DNA of 64,000 bases, from NCBI GenBank assembly GCA_043826925.1, contig JBDRPN010000002.1, positions 23,840 to 87,839 on the forward strand. Reading direction: 5' to 3'. The notes under the pieces were generated by a model. That model did not search any database and was not told the origin of the DNA. It was given only the letters and a program-made list of their open reading frames with translations. This document shows, one piece after another, positions 322 through 13,816 of the stretch (its first letter is position 1; each line of letters starts with the position of its first letter). Source of the stretch: Pseudomonadota bacterium. Its GTDB lineage: Bacteria > Pseudomonadota > Gammaproteobacteria > Burkholderiales > Rhodocyclaceae. A program made the translations under genes and the position numbers.

Positions 322-2073
322 ATGATGGCCAGCGAGGCTGCTGCCGACATGGAAGGCTCGGCCTGGAATCCCGGTGTCGGCACCGGCATCCCCGCGGAGT
401 TCCGCGCGCTCGAAACCATCTTGCGGCCCGAGTGCGTGTTCACCGGCGTCGGCGAGATCGACGAACTCGCCGCGCTGACCGGGCTGCCGCACGAGGAACT
501 CACGCTGTTCCGCCCGCAAAGGCTGGCGCTGCATGAGATCATCATCCGCGTCACGGCCGACGTCGCGGTGGCCGAGGGCGAGGAGGAAGAGGATTTCGGG
601 CGCAATTTCCGCCGCATCGCGACCAGGATCCGCGACGCCTACGTCGTTCCGCACATGGGCGAAATCGAGCAGGCCTATGCCGAACTGAGCCAGCGTGCCG
701 CTGCGCTGGTAAGCCGGATCCTGGAGGACACGCTGTTCCTGCCGCCGCCACCGGCAGCCGCGCGCGGCTGGTTCGGCCGCTGGCGCCGGGACAAGCGCCC
801 GAGCGCGCCGTCCGAGCCGGCCGCCGAGCGCGAGTACCGCATCGTCGCGGACTACAAGAGGCTGGGCCTGGGCACCGAAGATCCGCTACGGCGCGCCGCG
901 TACAAGAGCCTCTACCGGGTGCTTGGCGCGATTGCCGGCAAGCGCGGCCGCCTCGGCGCGGACCGCGACCTGCTGGCGAAGCTGGTCGCGCGCCACGTCT
1001 GCAACAGCCAGGGCAGCCAGCTGATCGGCCAGATGATCGCGCCCTGGGTCGTCGCGGCGATCGACGCGGAAGGCTACGTCCGCGTCGCCACCCAGGCGGC
1101 GCCGGTGCTGATTAGCCTGAAAGGCGCCTCGGCGGCCGGCAAGAGTTCGCTGCGGCCCATGCTCAAGCAGGTCCTGCGCGAACAGGGCATCGCCGCCGAC
1201 GGCTATGCCACGATCAGCCCGGATGTCTGGCGGCGCCAGCTGCTCGACTACGAATCGCTCGGGCGGGCGCGCAAATATGCCGGCCACCTGACCAGCCGCG
1301 AGCTGATGGTGATCGACGGCAAGCTCGATCGCTACATCCGCGACAAGGCCGATCGCGAGCACGCCATCCCGCACCTGCTGGTCGATCGCTTCCGCTTCGA
1401 CAGTTTCACCGCCGAGAAGGTGGCGCGGGTGCTGCACGACACCTATGCGCGCTACGTGCACACCATGTACATGTACTTCATCGTCACGCCGCCCGAGACC
1501 ACCGTGCTGCGCGGCTGGCAGCGGGCGCTGGAGCGCGGCCGCTACAAGGCGGTGGAGGATTTCCTGGCGCACGGTGTGGAGGCCTACCGCGGCATGCCGA
1601 AGATCCTGTTCAAATGGCTGGCCAGCCCGCGCCCCGACTACCGCTACGTCTTCCTCGACAACCGCGTGGCGCGCGGCAGCTTTCCCAAGACCATCGCCAG
1701 CGGCGACCGCGACCGGATGGTGATTTACGATCCGGCCGCCTTCATCGACATCGAGCGCTACCAGAAGGTCGACATCCATGCCGGCGCGCCGGCCGAGCTC
1801 TACCCGGCGTCGTCCGATCTGACGGTCGCCGCGAATTCCGGCTTCCTCAGGGAATGCGTGCGGCGCATCGCGACGCTGGAATTCGTCGATCGCGACAGCG
1901 GCCGTGCCTACCTGCGCGCGCACCGGGGCAGCTTCGAGGTACTCGACGCGGCACTGCTGGCGCGGCTTATGAGCGATGCGGAGTTCGCCGCTGCGCTGGG
2001 CGCGATCGCGCCCGGGTTGGCGGCGTCCGGGCAAGAGTTGGCGCTGGTGACACGGCGGAATACGCTTCCCTGA
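322..2073 (+). CDS. P-loop NTPase/kinase-like protein, zeta-toxin-like C-terminal domain
   Basis: Long ORF; Walker A GASAAGKSS (1123-1149) followed by ISPDVWRRQL. Start uncertain (ATG 322/325/349; track TTG 181 lies inside a repeat). Confidence 0.6.
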   Translation: MMASEAAADMEGSAWNPGVGTGIPAEFRALETILRPECVFTGVGEIDELAALTGLPHEELTLFRPQRLALHEIIIRVTADVAVAEGEEEEDFGRNFRRIATRIRDAYVVPHMGEIEQAYAELSQRAAALVSRILEDTLFLPPPPAAARGWFGRWRRDKRPSAPSEPAAEREYRIVADYKRLGLGTEDPLRRAAYKSLYRVLGAIAGKRGRLGADRDLLAKLVARHVCNSQGSQLIGQMIAPWVVAAIDAEGYVRVATQAAPVLISLKGASAAGKSSLRPMLKQVLREQGIAADGYATISPDVWRRQLLDYESLGRARKYAGHLTSRELMVIDGKLDRYIRDKADREHAIPHLLVDRFRFDSFTAEKVARVLHDTYARYVHTMYMYFIVTPPETTVLRGWQRALERGRYKAVEDFLAHGVEAYRGMPKILFKWLASPRPDYRYVFLDNRVARGSFPKTIASGDRDRMVIYDPAAFIDIERYQKVDIHAGAPAELYPASSDLTVAANSGFLRECVRRIATLEFVDRDSGRAYLRAHRGSFEVLDAALLARLMSDAEFAAALGAIAPGLAASGQELALVTRRNTLP

Positions 2074-2157
2074 TTGCGGAATAAAAACCTTGTTGGCCTC
2101 GGTGTAATAGGCGCTGCTACTATCTGACGCTTCGTCAAGAGAGCGTCAAGAACGGGT

Positions 2158-2190
2158 GTAGGCCGTACTCCCGGACGCTGCGCAACCTAC
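2158..2190. repeat. Degenerate GTAG-type REP-like hairpin upstream of sulP
   Basis: GTAGG...CCTAC termini around 23 nt. Confidence 0.35.
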
Positions 2191-2198
2191 CCCGGAAT

Positions 2199-4361
2199 AT
2201 GAGTTTTCCGCTGCTGCTGCAACGCTTCCTGCCCTTCCTGACCTGGTTTCCCTATTCCGGGGCGACGCTGCGTGCCGACTTCATTGCCGGCCTCACCGTG
2301 GCGCTGGTGCTGGTGCCGCAGTCGATGGCCTATGCCCAGCTGGCCGGTCTGCCGGCCTATTACGGACTCTATGCGGCTTTTCTGCCGGTGGTGGTGGCGG
2401 CGCTGTGGGGCTCGTCGCGCCAGCTCGGCACCGGGCCGGTGGCGGTCGCCTCGCTGCTCACCGCGTCCTCGCTGGCGCCGCTGGCGGCGCCGGGCTCGGA
2501 CGCCTTCGTCGCGCTGGCGATCATGCTGGCCCTGCTGGTCGGCATCTTTCAGCTCGCGCTGGGCGTGTTCAAGCTCGGCGTGGTGGTGAATTTCCTGTCG
2601 CACCCGGTCATCGTCGGCTTCACCAATGCGGCGGCGATCATCATCGGCCTGTCCCAGGTGAACAAGCTGATCGGCGTGCCGATGGGGCGCTCCGAGTCCT
2701 TCGTCAGCGACATCTGGGGCGTCGTGCAGCTGGTCGGAGACACCCATCTGCCGACCCTGGCCATGGGCGCAACTGCGATCGCCATCATGTGGGCGATCCG
2801 CAGACAGGCGCCCAAGCTGCCCGGCGTGCTGATCGCGGTCGCCCTGACCACCGTGGTCTCGTGGCAGATCGGCTTCGAGCGCAGCGCCAGCGCGAGCATC
2901 GAGCAGATTGCCGAGCCCGAGGCGCAGACGCTGCTCGGCGAATTCGTGCGCACCGAGGCGCGCATCAGGGAGATCAACGACCAGCTTGCCGCCGGCAATG
3001 GCGAACTCAGGAAGCTGCAAAAGGCCGGCAGCGAATCGGCTCACGATGTAGCCCGGCTGCGCTATGAGATCGAACTGCTCAAGCTGCAGCTCAAGGATCG
3101 CGAGGATGAAAACCGCCGTCGCAGCCGCGCCATTCGCGCCACCGTGCTGGAGCAGGTGCCCGCCGGCGACGGCAAGCCGGCGGTCTACTTCGCCCAGGGC
3201 AAGGTGCCGGCGGGGCTGCAGACCGAAGGTCATCGCTGGCGCATCACCCGCACCGTCCATGGCGCGGGCGGCGAGATCACCCTGACCGGCGGTGGCCAGG
3301 TGGTCGGCCGCATTCCCGAGGGCCTGCCCTCCGTCAGCTTGCCAAAATTTTCCTGGGAAGCCTTTGTCAGCCTGCTCGCCGCGGCCATCGTGATTTCGCT
3401 GGTGGGCTTCATGGAGGCGATTTCCATCGCCAAGGCCATCGCCGCCAAGACTCGGCAGAAAATCGACCCCAACCAGGAACTGATTGGCCAGGGCCTGGCC
3501 AACCTGGTCGGCAGCCTGACCCAGTCCTTCCCGGTTTCCGGCTCCTTCTCGCGCTCGGCGGTGAATATCAACGCCGGGGCCAAGTCCGGCATGTCCTCGG
3601 TCATCACCGGGGCATTCGTGCTGCTGACCCTGCTGTTCCTGACGCCGCTGCTCTACCACCTGCCGCAGGCGGTGCTTGCCGCCGTCATCATCATGGCGGT
3701 GATCGGCCTGATCAACTTCGGCGCCATCAAGCACGCCTGGCAGGCCAACCGGCACGACGGCATCGCCTCGGTGGTCACCTTCGTCGCCACCCTGGCGGCG
3801 GCGCCCCACCTTGACAAGGGCATCATGCTCGGCGCCGGGCTGGCCATCCTGCTTTATCTCTATCGCACCATGACGCCGCGCGTCGCCATCCTCGGCCGTT
3901 ATCACGACGGCACGCTGCGCGACGTGAAGGTGAACCAGTTGCCCGAATCGCGCGTGGTGGTCGCGGTGCGCTTCGACGGCCGACTCTACTTCGCCAATGT
4001 CTCCTACTTCGAGGACGCCCTGCTCGAAGCCGTCGCCAGCAACCCGCAGGTGGCCTACCTGCTGGTGGTCGGCGACGGCATCAACGAGCTCGATGCCTCG
4101 GGCGAGGAGGTGGTGCGCCACCTGGTCGAGCGCTTGCGTGCCAGCGGCATCACGGTGCTGTTCTCCGGCCTCAAGAAGCAGGTGATCGACGTCATGCATG
4201 CCACCGGCCTGTTCGACTACATCGGCCAGCCGAATATCTTCCCCACCGCCGACCTGGCCATCGAAGCTGCGTATGCGGCCGCGTCGGCGGCAGGCAGGGA
4301 GCACGCCTCGACCCTGCTCAAAAATCGACCTGTCGCCGCCGCGACAGCCCCGGCGCCGTAA
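2199..4361 (+). CDS. sulP: SulP/SLC26 anion (sulfate/bicarbonate) permease with STAS domain
   Basis: DFIAGLTVALVLVPQSMAYAQLAGLP, GLYAA, GSFSRSAVN, NQELIGQGLANL motifs; C-terminal STAS (RFDGRLYFAN...INELDASG). Confidence 0.93.
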   Translation: MSFPLLLQRFLPFLTWFPYSGATLRADFIAGLTVALVLVPQSMAYAQLAGLPAYYGLYAAFLPVVVAALWGSSRQLGTGPVAVASLLTASSLAPLAAPGSDAFVALAIMLALLVGIFQLALGVFKLGVVVNFLSHPVIVGFTNAAAIIIGLSQVNKLIGVPMGRSESFVSDIWGVVQLVGDTHLPTLAMGATAIAIMWAIRRQAPKLPGVLIAVALTTVVSWQIGFERSASASIEQIAEPEAQTLLGEFVRTEARIREINDQLAAGNGELRKLQKAGSESAHDVARLRYEIELLKLQLKDREDENRRRSRAIRATVLEQVPAGDGKPAVYFAQGKVPAGLQTEGHRWRITRTVHGAGGEITLTGGGQVVGRIPEGLPSVSLPKFSWEAFVSLLAAAIVISLVGFMEAISIAKAIAAKTRQKIDPNQELIGQGLANLVGSLTQSFPVSGSFSRSAVNINAGAKSGMSSVITGAFVLLTLLFLTPLLYHLPQAVLAAVIIMAVIGLINFGAIKHAWQANRHDGIASVVTFVATLAAAPHLDKGIMLGAGLAILLYLYRTMTPRVAILGRYHDGTLRDVKVNQLPESRVVVAVRFDGRLYFANVSYFEDALLEAVASNPQVAYLLVVGDGINELDASGEEVVRHLVERLRASGITVLFSGLKKQVIDVMHATGLFDYIGQPNIFPTADLAIEAAYAAASAAGREHASTLLKNRPVAAATAPAP

Positions 4362-4395
4362 CGCCAGCACCAACTCTTCACCGTCCAGCCCGATC

Positions 4396-6333
4396 ATGAA
4401 AAAACCGTCGCCCAAGATCCTCATCGCCGCCGCCTGCTTCCTGCTGATGTGGGGCGCCGCAGCTACGGTGGCCCCCGGTATCGAGGTAGCCGTGGTGCTC
4501 GGCATCCTGCTGCTGACGGTGTTCCTGTTCGCCTTCGAGGTGGTCGGCGTCGACGTCGCCGCGGTCAGCATCATGGTGATACTCGGCCTGATCAGCCATT
4601 TCGGTGCGGCATTGGGCATGGCCAAGCCTCTGGTGCCGCCCACCGAGTTGTTCCGCGGCTTCTCCAGCAACGCCGTGATTTCCATCATCGCCGTGATGAT
4701 CATCGGCGCCGGACTGGACAAGACCGGCCTGATGGGCAAGGTGGCCGGCACCATCCTCAAATACGCCGGCCGCACCGAGGCGCGCATCATCCCGGCGATT
4801 TCGGGCTCGGTCGGCTTCATTTCCAGCTTCATGCAGAACGTCGGCGCCGCCGCGCTGTTCCTGCCGGTGGTGAGCCGCATTTCGGCGCGCACCGGACTCG
4901 CGATGTCGCGCCTGCTGATGCCCATGGGTTTCTGCGCAATCCTCGGCGGCACCATCACCATGGTCGGTTCGAGCCCGCTGATCCTGCTCAACGACCTGAT
5001 CCTCACCTCCAACAAGGCCCTGCCGGCGGCACAGCAGATGGCGACCTGGTCGCTGTTTTCGGTAACGCCGATCGGCCTTGCGCTGCTCGGCACCGGCATC
5101 GCCTATTTCGTGCTCGCCGGACGCTTCGTGTTGCCGGGAAAGGCGGCAGTCGACGTGGTCAGCGGCGCCGATGCGGTGGATTACTTCCAGCAACTGTATG
5201 GGCTCGATTACGCGATCTACGAGGCGGTGGTGACGGCGGACAGTCCGCTGGTCGGCAAGCTGATCAATGACATCGAGGGCCCGAACCGGCTGCGCGTGAT
5301 CGCCATCCTGCGCGGCAGCGACGACTTGCGCATGGGGCCGTCGCGCGACGTCCAGATCGTCGGCGGCAGCGTCCTGGGCCTGCTCGGCGCGCCGGAGCGC
5401 CTGCGTGAATTCGCCGCGAACAGCGGTCTGCGCCTGCGCGAAGATCTCGAAACCTTCGCCGAACAACTCGCGCCCACCAAGGCGGGCATTGCCGAGGTGG
5501 TGATTCCGCCGCGCTCGGACCTTATCGGCAAGAGCGCGCGCGATGTCTGGATGCGCAAGACCTATGGCATTTCCATGACGGCGCTGCACCGCGGCGGCGC
5601 GACGTTGCGCGAAGGCGACGGCATCCGCGACATGCCCTTGCAGGCCGGCGATGCGCTGGTGGTACATACCAGCTGGGAAGCCCTGGCGCACCTGGAACAG
5701 GACAAGAACTTCGTCGTCATCACCACCGAGTATCCGCACGAGGAACTGCGCCCGCACAAGGTCAGGCAGGCGCTGGCTTTTTTCGGCATCACGCTGGTGC
5801 TGATCCTGTTTACCGACATCCGCCTCTCGATCGCGCTGATGAGCGGTGCGATCGGCATGATTCTCGCGGGCGTGCTGAAGATCGAGGAGGCCTACCAAGC
5901 GGTGAGCTGGAAATCCGTGTTCCTGCTCGCCAGCCTGATTCCGCTCGGCCTTGCGGTGGAAACCAGCGGCACCGCGGCGTGGATCGCGCAACAGACGCTG
6001 GCGCTGCTCGGCGGCACGCCGATCTGGGTGATCCAGCTGGCCATCGCGGTGCTGGCGACTTTCTTCACGCTGGTGATGTCGAACGTCGGCGCCACCGTGC
6101 TGCTGGTGCCGCTGGCGGTGAATATCGCGATCGGCGCCGGCGCCAACCCGGCAGTGTTTGCGCTGACCGTGGCGCTGGCGACCTCCAACTCCTTCTTCCT
6201 GCCGACCCACCAGGTCAATGCACTCATCATGGGGCCGGCGGGCTACCGGGTGGCCGACTTCATGCGCGCCGGCGGCATCATGACGCTGCTGTTCATCGTG
6301 GTGCTGATGGTCATGATGAACCTGGTGTTCTGA
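4396..6333 (+). CDS. SLC13/CitMHS-type permease with two TrkA-C (RCK_C) domains
   Basis: GFSSNAVISIIAVMIIGAGLDKTG, SSFMQNVGA, GGTITMVGSSP, MSNVGAT, HQVNALIMGPAGY motifs; central soluble RCK_C-like repeats. Confidence 0.88.
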   Translation: MKKPSPKILIAAACFLLMWGAAATVAPGIEVAVVLGILLLTVFLFAFEVVGVDVAAVSIMVILGLISHFGAALGMAKPLVPPTELFRGFSSNAVISIIAVMIIGAGLDKTGLMGKVAGTILKYAGRTEARIIPAISGSVGFISSFMQNVGAAALFLPVVSRISARTGLAMSRLLMPMGFCAILGGTITMVGSSPLILLNDLILTSNKALPAAQQMATWSLFSVTPIGLALLGTGIAYFVLAGRFVLPGKAAVDVVSGADAVDYFQQLYGLDYAIYEAVVTADSPLVGKLINDIEGPNRLRVIAILRGSDDLRMGPSRDVQIVGGSVLGLLGAPERLREFAANSGLRLREDLETFAEQLAPTKAGIAEVVIPPRSDLIGKSARDVWMRKTYGISMTALHRGGATLREGDGIRDMPLQAGDALVVHTSWEALAHLEQDKNFVVITTEYPHEELRPHKVRQALAFFGITLVLILFTDIRLSIALMSGAIGMILAGVLKIEEAYQAVSWKSVFLLASLIPLGLAVETSGTAAWIAQQTLALLGGTPIWVIQLAIAVLATFFTLVMSNVGATVLLVPLAVNIAIGAGANPAVFALTVALATSNSFFLPTHQVNALIMGPAGYRVADFMRAGGIMTLLFIVVLMVMMNLVF

Positions 6334-6467
6334 CCGCTCCATGACGCCAGCCTGCTGCCGATTGGCCATGGCGCGGCGTCTTGCCGGAGCGGCAGGATAG
6401 CCCGGCGCCGGCAGTGGGGCGCCTCGGGGCGGCTGACGCTGCTAGAATTGCGCCTGATCCCGCCACC

Positions 6468-8477
6468 ATGACCAGCCTCCTGCACGTCGATTTCCTGCTG
6501 ATTGCTTCTTGCGCCTGGCTGGCTGTCGGGCTGCTGGGGCTGGCGGCGCCGCGCAATACCTACTTCATCAGCAAGATCCTGTTTCCGCTCGGTGCGCTCG
6601 TCGCTATGCTGGTGGGATTGACGGCGCTGGCGTCGCTGGGCGGTCAGGCAGAGACCGCGGTGCTGGCCATCGGCCTGCCGGACCTGCCCTTCCACCTGCG
6701 CCTGGACAATCTGTCCGCCGTGTTCGCCCTGTTGCTGGGTTTCGCCTCGGTCGGCATCTCGATCTTCGCCGCCGGCTACTTCCGGGAAGGCGAGGGCACC
6801 GCGCCCGGCGTGCTCTGTCTCGAATACCACGTCTTTCTCGCCAGCATGCTGCTGGTGCTGCTGGCCGACGACGCCTACGCCTTCATGGTGGCCTGGGAGA
6901 GCATGGCGCTGTCGTCCTTCTTCCTCGTCACCACCAACCATCAGCACGCCGAGATACGCCGCGCCGGCTTTCTCTACCTGCTTATCGCCCATATCGGCGC
7001 CATATCCATCCTGCTCTCCTTCGGCGTGATGACCGGCGGCGCCGGCGACTACAGCTTTGCCGGCATGCGCGCCCAGGAGCTGTCGCCGTTCTGGGCCTCG
7101 GCGGCCTTCCTCCTGGCGCTGGCCGGCTTCGGCGCCAAGGCCGGCCTGGTGCCGCTGCACGTCTGGCTGCCCGAGGCGCATCCGGCGGCACCCTCGCCGG
7201 TCTCGGCGATGATGAGCGGCGTGATGCTGAAGACGGCAATCTACGGCCTGCTGCGGGTGAGCTTCGACTTGTTGCACACGACGATCTGGTGGTGGGGCGT
7301 GGTGGCGCTGGCGGTGGGTCTGGTCACGGCGCTTTTCGGCGTGCTCTACAGCACGGTGCAAAGCGACATGAAGAGGCTGCTGGCCTATTCGTCGATCGAG
7401 AATATCGGCCTGATAGCGGTCGGCATCGGCCTGACCCTGATCTTCCATGCCTACCGCATGGAGGCGCTGGCGGCCCTGGCCATGACGGCAGTGCTCTACC
7501 ACTGCCTGGCCCATTCCGCCTTCAAGAGCCTGCTGTTCCTGTGCACCGGTTCGGTGCTGCACGCGACCAAGGAGCGCAGCCTGGGCAAGCTCGGCGGCCT
7601 GATCCATCGCATGCCCTGGGTGGCTTGGCTGGCCTTGGCGGGCGTGGTCGCCAGCGCCGGCTTGCCGCCCTTGTCGGGCTTTGTTTCGGAGTGGCTGCTG
7701 CTGCAAAGCTTCCTGTTTTCGCCGGGCCTGCCGCACCCCTGGCTCAACATGGTGGTGCCGGTGGCCGCCGCGCTGGTGGTCTTGGTCGCCGCATTGGCCG
7801 GCTTCGCCATGGTCAAGTTCTACGGCATCATCTTCCTCGGCCAGATGCGCGAGCCCGGGCTGAAGGACGCTCATGATGCCGGCAGCTGGGAAAAAGTCGG
7901 CTTGGTGTGGCTGGCGCTGATCACCTTGCTGCTGGGCATCTTTCCCTCGACGGTCATCCTGCGCATCGACGCGGCCACGCGCCAGTTGCTCGGCACGGGT
8001 CTGGCCGACAAGCTGAACGAGCAGGGCTGGTGGATGCTGGCGCCTATTTCGCCGGAACGCGCCAGCTACGAGCCGATGATCTTCCTGGTCACCATCGCGT
8101 CCACCTTGCTGCTCGGCCGCTGGCTGGTGCGCCATCTCTACCATGGACGCGTGCGTCGCACCACGGCATGGGACTGCGGCTACTACTTCCAGGGCCCGCG
8201 CGCGCAGGACACCGCCGAGGGCTTCAGCCAGCCGATCCGCCGCATCTTCGAGCCGATGTTCCGCATGCTCCGGCATTTCCCGACCGCGCGCGACACCGCA
8301 CCGCATTACAGCGTCAAGGTCGAGGATCATTTCTGGTACTGGCTCTACCTGCCGCTGGCCCGCTTGGCCGCCCGGCTGTCGACGCTGATCGTCACCCTGC
8401 AGGGCGGGCGCATTGCCGTCTATCTGATGTACAGCTTCATCACCCTGCTGGTGCTCCTGCTGGTGGCGCGGCCATGA
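6468..8477 (+). CDS. hyfB: Hydrogenase-4 component B-like antiporter subunit (NuoL/MrpA family) of an Ehr-type complex
   Basis: AWESMALSSF, GFGAKAGLVPLHVWLPEAHPAAPSPVSAMMSG, KRLLAYSSIEN, WDCGY motifs. Confidence 0.9.
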   Translation: MTSLLHVDFLLIASCAWLAVGLLGLAAPRNTYFISKILFPLGALVAMLVGLTALASLGGQAETAVLAIGLPDLPFHLRLDNLSAVFALLLGFASVGISIFAAGYFREGEGTAPGVLCLEYHVFLASMLLVLLADDAYAFMVAWESMALSSFFLVTTNHQHAEIRRAGFLYLLIAHIGAISILLSFGVMTGGAGDYSFAGMRAQELSPFWASAAFLLALAGFGAKAGLVPLHVWLPEAHPAAPSPVSAMMSGVMLKTAIYGLLRVSFDLLHTTIWWWGVVALAVGLVTALFGVLYSTVQSDMKRLLAYSSIENIGLIAVGIGLTLIFHAYRMEALAALAMTAVLYHCLAHSAFKSLLFLCTGSVLHATKERSLGKLGGLIHRMPWVAWLALAGVVASAGLPPLSGFVSEWLLLQSFLFSPGLPHPWLNMVVPVAAALVVLVAALAGFAMVKFYGIIFLGQMREPGLKDAHDAGSWEKVGLVWLALITLLLGIFPSTVILRIDAATRQLLGTGLADKLNEQGWWMLAPISPERASYEPMIFLVTIASTLLLGRWLVRHLYHGRVRRTTAWDCGYYFQGPRAQDTAEGFSQPIRRIFEPMFRMLRHFPTARDTAPHYSVKVEDHFWYWLYLPLARLAARLSTLIVTLQGGRIAVYLMYSFITLLVLLLVARP

Positions 8478-9430
8478 TTTCCGTCTCGGGACTGTTTGGC
8501 CAGGCCTTCGCGATCCTGCTGGCGCTGGCGCTGGCGCCGCTGCTGTCGGGCTGGGTGGGGCAATGCCGGGCCTGGCTGCAAAGCCGCAGTGCGCCGCCGC
8601 TGCTGCAGCCCTACTACATGCTGCAGAAGCTGTTCCACAAGGATGTGGTACTGGCGCATGGCGCTTCGTCCCTGTTCCGCGTCGCGCCCTTCGTGGTCTT
8701 CGGTTGCATGGTGCTGGCCTGCGCCATTATTCCCACGCTGTCCACCGACCTGCCGCTGGCGCCGGCCGCCGACGCCCTCGCCCTGGTCGGCGTATTCGGT
8801 CTGGCGCGGATTTTCATTTCGCTCGCCGCGATGGATGTCGGCACTTCCTTCGGTAGCCTCGGTGGTCGCCGCGAAATGCTGATTGGATTTCTCGCCGAGC
8901 CGGCGCTGCTGATGGTGATTTTTACCCTGGCCATGATCGCCCAGTCGACCTCGGTCGCCACCATCGTCGATACCCTGGCCCATCGCGATCTGGTGATCTA
9001 CCCGAGCCTGGCCTTTGCCGGCATCGCCTTCACCTTCGTCTCCTTCGCCGAGAATGCCCGCGTGCCGGTGGACAATCCGGCCACCCATCTCGAACTGACC
9101 ATGATCCACGAGGCGATGATCCTCGAGTATTCCGGCCGCCATCTGGCGCTGCTCGAATGGGCGGCCAGCCTCAAGCTTTATGCCTACTCCTGTCTCGGCC
9201 TGGCGCTGTTTTTTCCCTGGGGCATCGCATCGGGCGACAGCTTCCTGGCGCTGGTCGCGGCGATACCGCTGCTGCTGTTCAAACTGAGCATCGGCGGCTT
9301 CCTGCTGGCCGTGATCGAGACCATCAACGCCAAGATGCGCATCTTCCGCGCGCCCGAGTTTCTCGGTACCGCCTTCATGCTGGCAGTGCTCGGACTGCTG
9401 GTGCGCCTGCTGCTGGAGAGCCGGGTATGA
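8474..9430 (+). CDS. hyfC: HyfC/HycD (NuoH-like) membrane subunit
   Basis: ATGA overlap with hyfB; QPYYMLQKLFHK, AENARVPVDNPATHLELTMIHEAMILEYSG. Confidence 0.9.
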   Translation: MISVSGLFGQAFAILLALALAPLLSGWVGQCRAWLQSRSAPPLLQPYYMLQKLFHKDVVLAHGASSLFRVAPFVVFGCMVLACAIIPTLSTDLPLAPAADALALVGVFGLARIFISLAAMDVGTSFGSLGGRREMLIGFLAEPALLMVIFTLAMIAQSTSVATIVDTLAHRDLVIYPSLAFAGIAFTFVSFAENARVPVDNPATHLELTMIHEAMILEYSGRHLALLEWAASLKLYAYSCLGLALFFPWGIASGDSFLALVAAIPLLLFKLSIGGFLLAVIETINAKMRIFRAPEFLGTAFMLAVLGLLVRLLLESRV

Positions 9431-10095
9431 GTTCCGCAATTCCGTTTTCTGCGCAGCTCATCAATCTTTTCGCGGCGGTGATCCTGCTGCTGGCCTTCGC
9501 CATGCTGGCGCAGCGGCGGATACTGGCGCTGATCAACCTGTTCGCCCTGCAGGGGCTGACCCTGTGCCTGGCGACCCTGGTGGCGGCGGTGACCACCAGC
9601 CAGGTGCACCTGTATTACTCGGCCGGCCTCACGCTGCTGCTCAAGGTGCTGCTGCTGCCCTGGATCCTGCATCGGCTGGTGCGCAAGCTCAACGTCAAGA
9701 ACGAGGTCGAGGCGCTGATCAACATCCCGACCACCATGCTGGTGGGAATCGTGCTGGTCATGGTCGCCTTCAATGTCGCGCTGCCGATTTCGGAGCTGTC
9801 CCACACCATCACGCGCGGCACCCTGGGCATTGCGCTGGCAGTGGTGATGCTGGCCTTCCTGATGATGATCACGCGGCAGAAGGCCATCACCCAGGTGGTC
9901 GGTTTCCTGTCGATGGAAAACGGCCTGTTCCTCGCCGCCACCAGCGCCACCTACGGCATGCCGATGGTGGTCGAACTGGGCATCGCGCTCGACGTGCTGG
10001 TCGGCGTGATCATCCTGGGCGTGTTCTTCTTCCAGATCCGCGACCAGTTCGACAGTCTCGACATTCGCAACATGGAACAGCTGAAAGACAACTAG
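9427..10095 (+). CDS. hyfE: HyfE-like membrane subunit
   Basis: Overlaps hyfC stop; KVLLLPWIL, QVVGFLSMENG, ELGIALDVL. Confidence 0.88.
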   Translation: MSSAIPFSAQLINLFAAVILLLAFAMLAQRRILALINLFALQGLTLCLATLVAAVTTSQVHLYYSAGLTLLLKVLLLPWILHRLVRKLNVKNEVEALINIPTTMLVGIVLVMVAFNVALPISELSHTITRGTLGIALAVVMLAFLMMITRQKAITQVVGFLSMENGLFLAATSATYGMPMVVELGIALDVLVGVIILGVFFFQIRDQFDSLDIRNMEQLKDN

Positions 10096-10112
10096 AAGAT
10101 GAAGAACTTTTC

Positions 10113-10186
10113 ACCACAGAGACACAGAGACACAGAGGAAATCAAAAGCCTTTCTGCCTGTCTCTGTGTCTCTGTGTCTCTGTGGT
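10113..10186. repeat. Perfect 25-bp inverted repeat (ACCACAGAGACACAGAGACACAGAG) with 24-nt loop; REP-like
   Basis: Arms 10113-10137 and 10162-10186 are exact reverse complements, each built of ACAGAGAC-type tandem units; lies between hyfE and hyfF. Confidence 0.92.
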
Positions 10187-10214
10187 CAATGATTTTGATC
10201 GGCATCTAGCCAAT

Positions 10215-11666
10215 ATGGATTTCTTCGTTCTCATGCTCGCGATTCCCCTGGTCAGCGGCGCGCTGCTGACGGTGGTCGGCGAACGCGAGTGGGCGCCCAA
10301 CCTCAACATCATTGCCAGTCTCGGCACCTTTGCCGCGGCGGCCGGCCTGACCGTCGAGATCGTCGCCAGCGGTCCGCGCTTCGCCTTCGGCGAGCAATTC
10401 TTCATCGATTCGCTGAATGTGTTCTTCGTCGCGCTGACCGCCTTCGTCGGCCTGACCACCAGCATATTCTCCGGCCCCTACATGAAGAACGAGCGCGAGC
10501 ACGGCAAGCTCAGCGCACCGCGCCTGCGGCTCTACAAAAGCATGTACCAGCTCTTCATGTTCACCATGCTGGCGGCGCTGACCACCAACAATCTCGGCAT
10601 CCTCTGGGTCGCGATGGAAGCGGCGACGCTGACCACGGTGCTGCTGGTGTCGCTCTACCGCACGCCGGCCAGCCTGGAGGCGGCCTGGAAATACTTCATT
10701 CTGTGTGGCGTCGGCATCGCCCAGGCGCTGTTCGGTACCATCCTGCTCTACTTTGCCGCCGAGCGCGTGTTGGGCGAGTCCGGCAACGCGCTTTTGTGGA
10801 CCCACCTGATCGACGTCAAGGGCCAGCTCGAGCCGACCATCATGGCCCTGTCCTTCATTTTTCTGCTGGTCGGCTACGGCACCAAGGTGGGTCTTGCGCC
10901 GCTGCACAACTGGCTGCCAGATGCCCACGCCGAAGGCCCGACGCCGGTCTCGGCGGTGCTTTCGGGCCTGCTGCTGAACGTCGCGCTCTACGCCATCCTG
11001 CGCTGCAAGGTACTGGCCGACGGCGCCATTCCCGGAAATTTCGCCGGCAACCTGATGATGGGCTTCGGCCTGTTCACGCTGCTCGTTGCGGCCTTCTTCC
11101 TGTCGCGGCAGAAGGATGTCAAGCGCATGTTCGCGTATTCCTCGATCGAGCACATGGGCCTCATCACCTTCGCCTTTGGCATGGGCGGTCCGGTGGCCAA
11201 TTTCGCCGGCCTCTTGCACATGACCATGCATTCGCTGACCAAATCGGCGATCTTCTTCGCCGTCGGCCATGCCACGCAGAAGACCGGCACCCAGTTGATG
11301 GAGAACATCCGCGGCCTGATCAAGATCAATCCGCTGATCGGCTGGGGGCTGATGCTCGGAACGCTGGCCATTCTTGGCATGCCGCCCTTCGGCGTCTTCG
11401 CCAGCGAATTCATGATCCTCACCCATGCCATGAAATACCACCCGTGGGCGACGCCGATCCTGCTGCTGGGGCTGGGCGTGGCTTTCGCCGCGATCTTCGG
11501 CAAGGTCCAGCCCATGGTGTTCGGCGAGACCGAGGCCAAGCGCCTGCCGCATGCGCCGGCCATCACGCCGGTGTTCCTGCATCTGGGCATCGTGTTGACA
11601 TTGGGACTCTATATTCCGCCCTATCTGACGCGCTGGTTCCACGAAGCCTCGCGCATGCTCGGCTAG
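10215..11666 (+). CDS. hyfF: HyfF-like antiporter subunit (NuoN/MrpD family)
   Basis: LWVAMEAATLTT, EAAWKYFILCGVG, GYGTKVGLAPLHNWLPDAHAEGPTPVSAVLSG, KRMFAYSSIEHMG. Confidence 0.9.
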   Translation: MDFFVLMLAIPLVSGALLTVVGEREWAPNLNIIASLGTFAAAAGLTVEIVASGPRFAFGEQFFIDSLNVFFVALTAFVGLTTSIFSGPYMKNEREHGKLSAPRLRLYKSMYQLFMFTMLAALTTNNLGILWVAMEAATLTTVLLVSLYRTPASLEAAWKYFILCGVGIAQALFGTILLYFAAERVLGESGNALLWTHLIDVKGQLEPTIMALSFIFLLVGYGTKVGLAPLHNWLPDAHAEGPTPVSAVLSGLLLNVALYAILRCKVLADGAIPGNFAGNLMMGFGLFTLLVAAFFLSRQKDVKRMFAYSSIEHMGLITFAFGMGGPVANFAGLLHMTMHSLTKSAIFFAVGHATQKTGTQLMENIRGLIKINPLIGWGLMLGTLAILGMPPFGVFASEFMILTHAMKYHPWATPILLLGLGVAFAAIFGKVQPMVFGETEAKRLPHAPAITPVFLHLGIVLTLGLYIPPYLTRWFHEASRMLG

Positions 11667-11681
11667 GGTCTGTTCACAACC

Positions 11682-13307
11682 ATGATCTTCCACGCCGAAC
11701 CCATCGAATTCGTCCGCCAGCCAGGGCCAGGCGCCCCGGTGTGGCGCGGCCGCGCCGCGGACGGCGAAGACATGCTGCGCTTCGCGATTTCCGTCCATCG
11801 CCACCAGGGCCGCCTAGCCGCGCTGTGGGGCGAGGATAGGCGGCAGCAGGGCGCCGGCTATCGCCTGCATTGCGTGTTCGCCCTCGACGAGGGCTGGCCC
11901 TGGCTCAGCCTCGACCTGGCGGCCGAGGGTGACCAGTGCCCGGTCTATCCCGACCTGTCCGGCATTTTTCCGGCGGCGAATCGCATGCAGCGCGCCACCC
12001 GCGACCTGGTCGGCATCGCCAGCGACGGCAGCGACCAGCGGCCCTGGCTGCGCCACGGCGCCTGGCCGGCGGACTGGTATCCGCTGCGACACGATGCCGA
12101 AGCGGAAAAAGGGGCCAGGCTCGAATTTAACGAATCCAAAAATTCGAGCCTGGCCCCTTTTTCAGCCGGCTTCGACAATTTCCCCAGCGACTACGAGTTC
12201 GTCAAGGTCGGCGGCGAGGGCGCCCACGAAATTCCGGTCGGCCCGATCCATGCGGGCATCATCGAGCCCGGCCATTTCCGCTTCTCGGTCGTCGGCGAGC
12301 GCGTGCTGCGCCTGGAGCAGCGGCTGGGGTACCAGCACAAGGGCGTCGAGAAGCTGTTCATCGGCGCCGACCTCGCGCATGGCGCGCGTGTGGTCGGCCG
12401 CGTCTCCGGTGATTCGACCTGCGCCTACGCCTGGGCCTATGCCGACGCGGTGGAGTCCGCGTGCCGCGTCGAGCCGCCGCCGCGGGCCCTGATGCTGCGT
12501 GCGCTGATGCTCGAGCGCGAGCGCGTCGCCAATCATCTGGGCGACCTCGGTGCGCTGGGCAACGACGCCGCCTTTGCCTTCGGCCTGACCCAGTTCATGC
12601 GCCTCAAGGAAGACTGGCTGCGCCTGAACCAGCAGATGTTCGGTCACCGCTTCATGATGGATCGCATCGTGCCGGGCGGCGTCGTCATGGACGTCGACGC
12701 CGGTGCGCTTGGCGCGATGGTCGAACAGTGCGGAGTGGTGCGTGGCGAAGTCAGGAAACTGTGCAAACTCTATGACGAACACGCCGGCCTGCAGGATCGT
12801 TTCGCCACCACCGGCGCGCTCGACGCCACCCTGGCACGCGAGCTGTCGCTGTCCGGCATGGCCGCCCGTGCCAGCGGCATCCTGCTCGACGGCCGCGCCC
12901 ACCGCCAGGGCTACACGCCGCCGGCGCCCTATGCCCAACTCGGCGTGCGTCCGGTCACCGACGAGCGCGGCGACGTGGCCGCGCGCGTCGCCGTGCGCTT
13001 CGGCGAGATTTACGAATCGCTGCGCCTGTTGCGCGAAATCGCGCTCGGCCTGCCGGGCGGTGTGATCCGGGTCGAAGTCGCGCCGACCGGCGACGCCAGC
13101 GGCCTCGGCGTGATCGAAGGCTGGCGCGGCGAGGTGTTGGTCGGCGTCCAGTTCGCCGGCGACGGCAGGCTGGCCCGGGTGCATCCGCACGACCCGTCAT
13201 GGCAGGCCTGGCCGGCGCTGGAACACGCGGTGCTCAAGGACATCGTTCCCGACTTCCCGCTGATCAACAAGTCCTTCAACTTGTCTTATTCCGGAGTCGA
13301 TCTGTGA
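11682..13307 (+). CDS. HyfG/HycE-like large subunit (NuoC+NuoD-like) lacking NiFe ligands; EhrL-type
   Basis: VGPIHAGIIEPGHFRFSVVGE, YQHKGVEK, ERERVANHLGD, EGWRGE; L1 site reads RVSGDST and C-terminus reads DFPLINKSFNLSYSGVDL, with no CxxC pairs. Confidence 0.88.
   Translation: MIFHAEPIEFVRQPGPGAPVWRGRAADGEDMLRFAISVHRHQGRLAALWGEDRRQQGAGYRLHCVFALDEGWPWLSLDLAAEGDQCPVYPDLSGIFPAANRMQRATRDLVGIASDGSDQRPWLRHGAWPADWYPLRHDAEAEKGARLEFNESKNSSLAPFSAGFDNFPSDYEFVKVGGEGAHEIPVGPIHAGIIEPGHFRFSVVGERVLRLEQRLGYQHKGVEKLFIGADLAHGARVVGRVSGDSTCAYAWAYADAVESACRVEPPPRALMLRALMLERERVANHLGDLGALGNDAAFAFGLTQFMRLKEDWLRLNQQMFGHRFMMDRIVPGGVVMDVDAGALGAMVEQCGVVRGEVRKLCKLYDEHAGLQDRFATTGALDATLARELSLSGMAARASGILLDGRAHRQGYTPPAPYAQLGVRPVTDERGDVAARVAVRFGEIYESLRLLREIALGLPGGVIRVEVAPTGDASGLGVIEGWRGEVLVGVQFAGDGRLARVHPHDPSWQAWPALEHAVLKDIVPDFPLINKSFNLSYSGVDL
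12105..12163. repeat. Perfect 24-bp inverted repeat inside the large-subunit CDS
   Basis: gaaaaaggggccaggctcgaattt (12105-12128) / aaattcgagcctggccccttttt-c (12140-12163), 11-nt loop; reading frame stays open. Confidence 0.9.
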
Positions 13308-13816
13308 TCCCGCTTCTGCGCCACATCTTCCGCACCGGCATTCTGACCGAGCCCATGCCCGAAGCCGAGGGCGGGCCGCAGCGCGAGATCGACCGGCTGC
13401 ACGACGAGATCCTGAATGTGCTCGGCCGCGCCCTGACCATACGTGAGGTCGATGCCGGTTCCTGCAACGGCTGCGAGCTGGAGATCCACGCCCTCAACAA
13501 TCCCTATTACAACCTCGAAGGCCGCGGCATCAAGTTCGTCGCCAGTCCGCGCCATGCCGACATGCTGCTGGTGACCGGGCCGGTGACGCGGAACATGGAA
13601 AATGCGCTGCGCATCGCCTACGACTGCACGCCCGATCCCAAGCTGGTCGTGGCGGTGGGCGACTGCGGCTGCAACGGCGGGGTGTTCGGCGAGAGCTATG
13701 CGAGTTGCGGCGCGGTGGACAACGTGGTCGGCGTCGACCTGCGCATTCCCGGCTGTCCGCCGACGCCGCTGGCCCTGATGCAGGGCATCCTGGCGGCGAT
13801 ACGCACCACGAAGTAG
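13304..13816 (+). CDS. HyfI/HycG (NuoB-like) Fe-S small subunit; EhrS-type
   Basis: GTGA overlap; GSCNGCELE, SPRHADMLLVTGP, AVGDCGCNGG, IPGCPP. Confidence 0.88.
   Translation: MIPLLRHIFRTGILTEPMPEAEGGPQREIDRLHDEILNVLGRALTIREVDAGSCNGCELEIHALNNPYYNLEGRGIKFVASPRHADMLLVTGPVTRNMENALRIAYDCTPDPKLVVAVGDCGCNGGVFGESYASCGAVDNVVGVDLRIPGCPPTPLALMQGILAAIRTTK

Follow-up and report, generated by a model that had tools for sequence, protein, structure and literature searches.

A NiFe-less Ehr-type complex behind SulP and SLC13 anion carriers in a Rhodocyclaceae genome, a possible energy partner of inorganic carbon uptake

Ehr complexes are widespread and have been reported in many phyla, without an assigned electron donor, acceptor or role. 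One of them lies at positions 6468-13816 of a 64,000-nucleotide (nt) stretch, here called the window, of a contig with 66% G+C from a freshwater, presumably hydrogen- and sulfur-oxidising bacterium of the family Rhodocyclaceae. The window segment 2199-13816 is a six-gene Ehr operon with two secondary anion carriers, a SulP transporter and an SLC13-type permease, acquired on its 5' side. The reading preferred here, and held tentatively, is that the Ehr complex moves cations and serves as the energy partner in a locus for inorganic-carbon uptake.

The Ehr cluster GSU0739-0745 of Geobacter sulfurreducens, by its published description, resembles that of the window in a large subunit without CxxC motifs, a NuoB-like subunit, and NuoL/M/N-, NuoH- and HyfE-like subunits; neither comes with dedicated maturation genes (PMC6349859, PMC10284858, PMC7894505). 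The window locus differs in that SulP and SLC13 genes precede the complex and in that its relatives embed Ehr among SulP, DabA/DabB and CsoSCA2. In published proposals the partner of Ehr is instead a formate dehydrogenase. Escherichia coli hydrogenase-4/formate hydrogenlyase (FHL; HyfA-J; HycB-G, 7Z0S) contains the closest structural relative of the large subunit. In the window the genes still follow the order hyfB-C-(D)-E-F-G-(H)-I, and HyfB and HyfF pass the hydrogenase-4 equivalogs, but the NiFe cysteines are missing, as are HyfA, HyfD and HyfH (the ferredoxins and the third antiporter subunit), FdhF, HyfJ/R and the protease. Pyrococcus MBS/Mbx (6U8Y) is a respiratory relative; HyfF has its best PDB relative in MBS subunit H (6u8y_H, E 8.6e-38), and the large subunit matches MbsL weakly (E 1e-11) and MbhL of Pyrococcus MBH (6CFW) with E 2.7e-30. 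Unlike the window Ehr, MBS and MBH are complexes of 13-14 subunits that include an Mrp module and a ferredoxin subunit of the NuoI type.

Two further systems are related by their energy modules. DAB (DabA/DabB) pumps, which couple CO2 hydration to the proton motive force, have, like Ehr, a complex-I-type antiporter-like energy module (10.64898/2026.03.13.711513), and DAB clusters in relatives of the window have the locus, the SulP ortholog and CsoSCA2 in common with Ehr. Unlike DAB, Ehr has a complete peripheral arm, which includes an Fe-S cluster, and it lacks a subunit like a beta-carbonic anhydrase. The cyanobacterial NDH-1MS/MS' complexes (NdhD3/F3-CupA) are similar as members of the complex I family that are linked to inorganic carbon and occur alongside the SulP-type BicA (PMC12435202, PMC13249358). 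NDH-1MS, however, is a ferredoxin:plastoquinone oxidoreductase with NdhI/K clusters and the CupA Zn site, and none of these was found in the window Ehr. Papers linking Ehr with SulP, DAB or CsoSCA2 were not found in the literature searched. Ehr as such is already known.

An initial annotation of the window listed nine co-oriented genes on the + strand. The open reading frames, the public gene calls on the same contig, and the Pfam and NCBIfam matches all agree with it, and the genes are as follows.

322-2073, + strand: P-loop protein of 583 amino acids (aa), weak Pfam Zeta_toxin match
2199-4361, + strand: SulP/SLC26 anion transporter with C-terminal STAS domain (Pfam Sulfate_transp and STAS)
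4396-6333, + strand: SLC13/DASS-like permease of the CitMHS fold with two internal TrkA_C (RCK_C) domains (Pfam)
6468-8477, + strand: hyfB-like antiporter-type membrane subunit, EhrA-type (Proton_antipo_M, NCBIfam)
8474-9430, + strand: hyfC/NuoH-like membrane subunit, 4-nt overlap with hyfB (Pfam NADHdh 120 bits, gene call)
9427-10095, + strand: hyfE-like small membrane subunit, 4-nt overlap with hyfC (NCBIfam, below cut-off)
10215-11666, + strand: hyfF-like antiporter-type membrane subunit (Proton_antipo_M, NCBIfam)
11682-13307, + strand: fused NuoC-like and NuoD/HycE-like large subunit (Pfam Complex1_30kDa and Complex1_49kDa)
13304-13816, + strand: NuoB/HycG-like small subunit, 4-nt overlap with the large-subunit gene (Pfam Oxidored_q6 106 bits)

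The large subunit has RVSGDST at residues 240-246 and the C-terminal end ...NKSFNLSYSGVDL. The initial annotation had taken these to stand in place of the RxCxxC and DPCxxC motifs of group 4 hydrogenases and had called the subunit NiFe-less and Ehr-type, and the comparison with known structures and relatives agrees on each point. Among PDB entries, HycE of E. coli (7z0s_E) matches best, with E 3.8e-47 over residues 40-540, and in the phmmer alignment its C241, C244, C531 and C534 correspond to S242, S245, S535 and G538. The residues S-D-S-S-G occupy the NiFe-site positions in 64 of 73 related large subunits, and more than one Cys occurs there in none. A protein homologue search with the large subunit itself gave close relatives only (72-93% identity). 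The large subunit is also the least conserved Ehr protein among close relatives, with 76% identity versus at least 90% for the membrane subunits. Genes for hyp proteins, a maturation protease, a HyfA/H-type ferredoxin or formate dehydrogenase are absent within about 15 kb upstream and 8 kb downstream, as had been noted before for the immediate vicinity.

A group 4 [NiFe] hydrogenase was rejected as the identity of the complex, since all four NiFe cysteines are replaced and no maturation or electron-input genes lie nearby. That it could still be a working H2-evolving or H2-oxidising enzyme of the Hyf/FHL-2 kind is scarcely credible. NCBIfam does label the hyfB and hyfF products as hydrogenase 4 subunits, and true [NiFe] hydrogenases, presumably with their maturation genes, are encoded on other contigs of the same genome, but the four cysteines are never all present in the 73 relatives either. 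Respiratory complex I was rejected as well. The quinone-site residues His38 and Tyr87 of Thermus thermophilus Nqo4 are not kept and align to Ile194 and Gly243 of the large subunit, and the NCBIfam equivalogs for NuoD (150.8 vs 360) and NuoB (109.9 vs 116) were both failed. A true complex I (nuo operon) is located on another contig (C51) and holds the only other NuoD homologue of the genome. Judged by its residues, the complex at 6468-13816 is of the NiFe-less Ehr type and would not be an H2 enzyme. It matches the published definition of Ehr, the function of which is still termed unknown (PMC6349859, PMC10284858, PMC7894505).

The remaining subunits retain the features of an ion-translocating module. 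Four cysteines of the small subunit, Cys54, Cys57, Cys121 and Cys151, do not vary among the related loci, in contrast to its other cysteines, and these four form the CxxC...C...CP pattern of a proximal [4Fe-4S] cluster. HyfB scores 883.6 against the cut-off of 667 for NCBIfam hydrogenase 4 subunit B, and its Glu144 in transmembrane helix (TM) 5, Lys224 in TM7, Lys255 in TM8 and Glu408 in TM12 are invariant in 82 of 86 related sequences. HyfF scores 857.6 against 543 for subunit F, with Glu135, Lys224 and Glu398 invariant; the position of the TM8 lysine is Asn255 in 75 of 75 sequences. The HyfE-like protein reaches 96 bits, under the cut-off of 136, for the NCBIfam hydrogenase 4 membrane subunit and has no Pfam match. 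Antiporter-like, NuoH-like and HyfE-like membrane subunits are thus, by Pfam and NCBIfam, all in one cluster. Because the E/K/K/E set of HyfB, the E/K/N/E set of HyfF and the four small-subunit cysteines are invariant, selection appears to maintain Ehr as an ion-translocating module that carries an Fe-S cluster.

For comparison of neighbourhoods, 80 related loci were collected via HyfB, and the nine window proteins and clustered neighbours were mapped onto each. A reverse survey covered 301 genomes of one bacterial family; genomes, loci and contigs are referred to by G, L and C numbers where needed. The host genome surveyed is a 4.96-Mb metagenome-assembled genome of 91% completeness (GCA_043823575.1), with Sulfuritalea/Rhodocyclaceae genomes as its closest kin. 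Ehr was found in 115 of the 301 genomes and in 46 of 89 genera, a count that includes about 10 genomes with only a 30-38% match of the Hyf/Hyc type. In a tree of HyfB, HyfC and HyfF, the related loci fall in two clades. One contains the window, and the other comprises 24 loci with metG upstream and a housekeeping synteny (apbC/mrp, dcd, amino-acid decarboxylase). Two paralogous Ehr clusters were observed in G294 (L091), G143 (L092) and G249 (L099/L100), with large subunits 45% and 54-58% identical to that of the window; they stand side by side, divergent or convergent, in G294 and G143 and about 20 kb apart in G249.

The initial annotation had linked the SulP gene to Ehr and suggested a survey of neighbourhoods, and this survey found the linkage both conserved and specific. 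An ortholog of SulP is directly 5' of hyfB in 34 of 44 informative loci of the window's clade, with 68-97% identity including an insert of 140 aa, and the genes farther 5' vary among these 34. At the SulP position, the other informative loci have a DabA cluster (3/44) or something else (7/44). When orthologs were defined as full-length matches of at least 65%, they were found in 43 of the 301 genomes. Twenty-five adjoin Ehr, two precede a five-gene DAB cluster (DAB5) followed by Ehr, and six precede a DabA cluster without adjoining Ehr; the other ten are elsewhere or unresolved at contig ends, so that 33 of 43 adjoin Ehr and/or DabA/DabB. Five of the six genomes with SulP ahead of DabA/DabB alone have no Ehr anywhere. 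Sulfurisoma sediminicola BSN1 (L012) likewise has SulP ahead of Ehr. In G249, of the same genus as the window, the flanks are the same (SulP 75%, LldD-like protein 87% identical). The Ehr modules of G249 and G051 belong to the other clade and still follow the same SulP ortholog, so the pairing, whether retained or formed anew, extends to at least three Ehr lineages. SulP is a real, conserved and specific partner of Ehr.

Genes of inorganic carbon metabolism adjoin the same loci in relatives. A DAB cluster is immediately 5' of hyfB and on the same strand in L010 (genome G236), L013, L041 and G259. Its genes are DabA (PF10070, E 1e-224), DabB and two more with a Proton_antipo_M domain; where upstream sequence exists, in G236 and G259, it is preceded by the SulP ortholog and by a fifth gene of the antiporter-like kind. 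The DAB cluster of G225 is convergent with an Ehr cluster of the other clade. In G048 (L089 10222-17467), the DAB cluster is followed by a very divergent six-gene NiFe-less Ehr-like cluster; its large subunit is 32% identical to that of the window, reads ICGDSS and SYCGNDL and keeps one of the four canonical cysteines, and its small subunit carries a fused 2x[4Fe-4S] ferredoxin domain at the N terminus. DabA therefore abuts Ehr in three divergent Ehr lineages. Both occur in about 13 genomes and are at most 12 kb apart in four of them, whereas chance would give about 0.1 for two loci in a genome of 4 Mb; this estimate is rough and takes no account of common descent.

The third element is a CsoSCA2-like protein of 373 aa (CsoSCA_cat 27.8 bits). 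CsoSCA2 proteins are non-carboxysomal carbonic anhydrases (PMC9164163). The gene is at most 8 kb downstream of Ehr in six surveyed genomes, mostly convergent, and directly after DAB5 in nine. The recurring frame in relatives thus begins with SulP, continues with DAB5, Ehr, SLC13 plus Ehr, or DAB5 plus Ehr, and closes with a convergent CsoSCA2. The window is the version with SulP, SLC13 and Ehr in this order and without CsoSCA2 and DabA. The initial annotation had left the anion between bicarbonate, a sulfur oxyanion and a dicarboxylate; since the SulP ortholog and Ehr adjoin DabA/DabB and CsoSCA2 in relatives, bicarbonate or CO2 gains support.

The five-gene DAB variant is an observation in its own right. 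Its members are DabB, a DabA that is long (about 1070 aa) and three genes of the antiporter-like kind, and it was seen at L086 1093-10240, L093 3320-12669, L096, L097 and L090. It is often headed by SulP and closed by a convergent CsoSCA2, and it occurs also in genomes without Ehr. A description of this larger form was not found in the literature.

According to the preferred reading, the locus would be one variant of a modular system by which the Sulfuritalea/Rhodocyclaceae group acquires CO2 or bicarbonate. Bicarbonate, or else a related anion, would enter through SulP together with H+ or Na+, while the two antiporter-like subunits and the NuoH-like subunit of Ehr would move H+ or Na+, and the peripheral arm would retain one [4Fe-4S] cluster. 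With intact antiporter channels and an Fe-S cluster, Ehr could generate or recycle locally the ion gradient used by SulP, by SLC13 and, in relatives, by DabA/DabB. For the substrate, the ion, the coupling direction, the protein contacts and the energy source of Ehr, we infer the roles given here, and it is the genomic context that suggests a bicarbonate function for SulP. A bolder form is unlikely, in which Ehr is the energy engine of a modular, non-cyanobacterial carbon-concentrating system and docks with SulP or the DabA/DabB chain into an NDH-1MS-like supercomplex. The modules of such a system would be SulP, then DabA/DabB with extra antiporter subunits and/or Ehr, then CsoSCA2, and the docked complex would couple redox or ion-gradient energy to bicarbonate accumulation.

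Ehr and DAB5 take the same place in the locus, with the SulP ortholog on one side and CsoSCA2 on the other, and this could also mean that Ehr itself is an energy-coupled, vectorial CO2-hydrating machine that replaces DabAB or NDH-1MS/CupA, with SulP adding bicarbonate transport. The remodelled former NiFe pocket (Ser/Asp/Ser/Ser) would then be a catalytic or gating site, in line with the strong conservation of S-D-S-S-G, and the metG-linked clade would be Ehr working without a transporter. There is precedent in DAB and NDH-1MS, in which complex-I-type antiporter modules can drive CO2 hydration (10.64898/2026.03.13.711513; PMC12435202). However, neither a carbonic-anhydrase-like subunit nor conserved Zn ligands were seen in Ehr, where only the DPSW and GDS motifs are invariant. 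DAB and Ehr also stand side by side in G259, G236/L010 and G048, which fits complementary roles better than redundant ones. A CO2-hydrating Ehr is accordingly rated as improbable.

The SulP protein itself matches Pfam Sulfate_transp with 361 bits in two stretches and STAS with 55.8 bits. It passes TIGR00815 (433.5 vs 380.45) and fails the equivalogs for BicA (NF050096, 143.9 vs 880) and DauA (198 vs 614). It keeps the GSFSRSAVN motif and a TM8 glutamate that aligns with Glu347 of the plant transporter SULTR4;1, a residue that mediates H+ coupling. Residues of about 226-366 (window 2874-3299) form an insert of about 140 aa, coiled-coil and beta-rich, between the two 7-TM repeats. By SLC26 topology, this location makes the insert probably periplasmic. 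Pfam on the insert alone gave nothing meaningful, and no family match was obtained. The insert is common to the Ehr-linked and DAB-linked orthologs and to some paralogs of 52-58% identity, and it is absent from the paralog with USP domains.

These properties bear on another explanation, in which SulP and SLC13 take up sulfate, thiosulfate or dicarboxylates and Ehr is an Mrp-like Na+/H+ or pH module. SulP is most like the SULTR-type sulfate transporters, with motif and TM8 glutamate kept, and it is not a BicA by score; DASS carriers are typically Na+-coupled sulfate or carboxylate symporters. Genes for a TauE exporter and a second SulP (SulP2), both with USP domains, lie upstream, a rhodanese gene is present in L041, and the hosts are sulfur oxidisers as judged by record titles. 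On the other side, the TauE and SulP2 genes run on the opposite strand and are present at some loci only, and the SulP ortholog heads DabA/DabB in six genomes without adjoining Ehr, framed by CsoSCA2, which is hard to explain for a sulfate carrier. Such a role in the uptake of other anions is considered doubtful, at about the level of the CO2-hydrating machine.

The SLC13 permease matches Pfam CitMHS (220 bits), TrkA_C (64 bits) and Na_sulph_symp (39.4 bits), while it remains under the cut-off of TIGR00785 dass (93.5 vs 198.6). Its linkage to Ehr, claimed in the initial annotation together with that of SulP, proved specific but sporadic. Orthologs of at least 76% identity number eight in the 301 genomes and six of them adjoin Ehr, in three gene orders: SulP, SLC13, Ehr; SLC13, SulP, Ehr; and SLC13, Ehr. 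SLC13 is thus a sporadic yet specific partner of the Ehr locus. A remnant of 186 aa, 77% identical, was observed between SulP and the DabA cluster at L097 12655-13215 in G219. As this genome is without Ehr, the remnant suggests that SLC13 is a component of the locus rather than of Ehr in particular.

Several points weigh against the role of Ehr in inorganic carbon uptake preferred here. The evidence is gene neighbourhood within one bacterial family, and the window genome itself is without DabA and CsoSCA2, the carriers of the inorganic-carbon argument; at 91% completeness, neither DabA (PF10070) nor CsoSCA2 was found in it, and the window has no DabA either. The best PDB relative of SulP is SULTR4;1 (E 9e-97), which places it nearest to the H+/sulfate-type SLC26 proteins, and the TauE-USP and SulP-USP genes upstream would suit sulfur oxyanions equally. 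Ehr has no evident site for an electron donor or acceptor, as it keeps neither His38 nor Tyr87 of Nqo4 and lacks a subunit like NuoI; with no NiFe site either, no power source for a primary pump is apparent. A transporter is present in none of the 24 metG-clade loci, so Ehr has no need of SulP. What is conserved is therefore the Ehr core of six genes, to which transporters were added in particular lineages. Finally, hyfB has a conserved extended -10-like element of its own, so that Ehr may be transcribed separately from the transporters, and co-expression with sulP is then not assured.

Some of these points would suit an Ehr that acts alone as a redox-driven respiratory ion pump, for instance ferredoxin-dependent with a quinone or sulfur acceptor, next to neighbours that reflect no more than synteny by inheritance or common regulation. 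In published work Ehr is regarded as a putative redox-coupled ion translocator (PMC6349859, PMC7894505). The ligands of the [4Fe-4S] cluster do not vary, the small subunit of G048 carries a ferredoxin domain, hyfB has a promoter-like element of its own, and the 24 loci of the sister clade have housekeeping neighbours only. Against an autonomous pump stand the absence of the canonical quinone residues, the SulP adjacency, which survives changes of the upstream genes and recurs with three Ehr lineages, and the proximity of DabA and Ehr in four of about 13 genomes, far above the rough chance estimate given above. This explanation is unlikely, with somewhat more in its favour than the CO2-hydrating machine or the uptake of other anions.

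The signals around the genes are listed here.

2082-2152, + strand: conserved non-coding block before sulP, from the alignment of 32 sulP upstream regions
6438-6448, + strand: extended -10-like element GCTGCTAGAAT, about 20 nt 5' of the hyfB start
10110-10189, no strand assigned: REP-like palindrome with 28-nt arms of CACAGAGA repeats (inverted repeat I1, 96% complementary)
12102-12166: palindrome with 27-nt arms, in-frame in the NuoC-NuoD linker of the large subunit

The gaps between genes are 125 nt (P-loop gene to sulP), 34 nt (sulP to slc13), 134 nt (slc13 to hyfB), 119 nt (hyfE to hyfF) and 15 nt (hyfF to the large-subunit gene), and the other junctions are 4-nt overlaps. The block before sulP contains an A-tract AATAAAAA, a -35-like hexamer TTGGCC, a 19-nt spacer and an extended -10-like element TGCTACTAT (2116-2124). 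The last has the form TGCTA(A/C)TAT across loci and is followed by a small hairpin, GACGCT...AGCGTC. The block is kept despite differing upstream genes (P-loop, TauE-USP, SulP2 and others) and is a candidate promoter. At the position before hyfB, CTGCTAGAAT, CTGATAGAAT or TATAAT occurs in nearly all of 33 close loci, whichever gene precedes. As conserved promoter-like elements precede both sulP and hyfB, two transcription starts with read-through are likely.

The sequence GCTGCTAnnAT, common to the regions before sulP and hyfB, was rejected as a regulon marker (11 genome copies vs about 20 expected), and so was CTGCTAGAAT, which is not rare genome-wide (8 copies vs 3.7 expected). A consensus promoter scan, made with spacers of 16-18 nt only, found none. 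Terminator-like sites are absent from all gaps and occur inside genes only. Sigma-54 sites (TGGCAC-N5-TTGCW, at most two mismatches), considered because NtrC-type regulators flank related loci, are fewer than in shuffled sequences and absent from the intergenic gaps.

The REP-like palindrome fills the hyfE-hyfF spacer, has dozens of copies in the genome (174 BLAST segments) and is missing from this spacer in several close relatives. The palindrome in the large-subunit gene is present in a single copy in the window genome, at the same site in L004, and in an intergenic position in L011. Rfam gave only sub-threshold miRNA-hairpin matches, on the two palindromes, and no riboswitch.

The P-loop gene, which the initial annotation had counted with the unit, is adjacent and probably not part of it. 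Its product matches Pfam Zeta_toxin in the C-terminal half with 24.4 bits against 22.3, spanning 70 of 199 profile positions; there is no NCBIfam or PDB sequence match, and Pfam on the N-terminal 255 aa alone found nothing. Orthologs of 40-69% identity form a full-length conserved family in 23 of the 301 genomes, and only in two of them, the window genome (G000) and its congener G155, is the gene near Ehr. The final codons of the gene overlap the conserved promoter-like block of sulP. Membership in the unit was rejected on the basis of the 2/23 linkage and of this block between the gene and sulP.

Just upstream of the window, on the opposite strand, there is an anion-transporter island (L085 7780-14621, contig C2) that encodes a SulP-STAS protein with two USP domains, a histidine kinase, a response regulator and a TauE/SafE exporter with two USP domains. 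In many related loci, an NtrC-type regulator and a kinase replace it. The genes 3' of the window Ehr are on the opposite strand and encode an FMN-dependent dehydrogenase, then a GGDEF protein and others. RuBisCO is encoded elsewhere in the genome, a point in favour of the inorganic-carbon reading.

If the preferred reading is true, Ehr would provide a third complex-I-derived route of inorganic carbon uptake beside NDH-1MS and DAB, and the unexplained CsoSCA2 carbonic anhydrases would be accounted for. It would also correct the routine labels 'hydrogenase 4' and 'NADH-quinone oxidoreductase' for Ehr genes. The locus and its relatives make the role of Ehr testable, and cultivable Sulfuritalea and Sulfurisoma strains exist. 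Should Ehr be the energy engine of carbon concentration, a function would be given to a family that has been without one since its naming.

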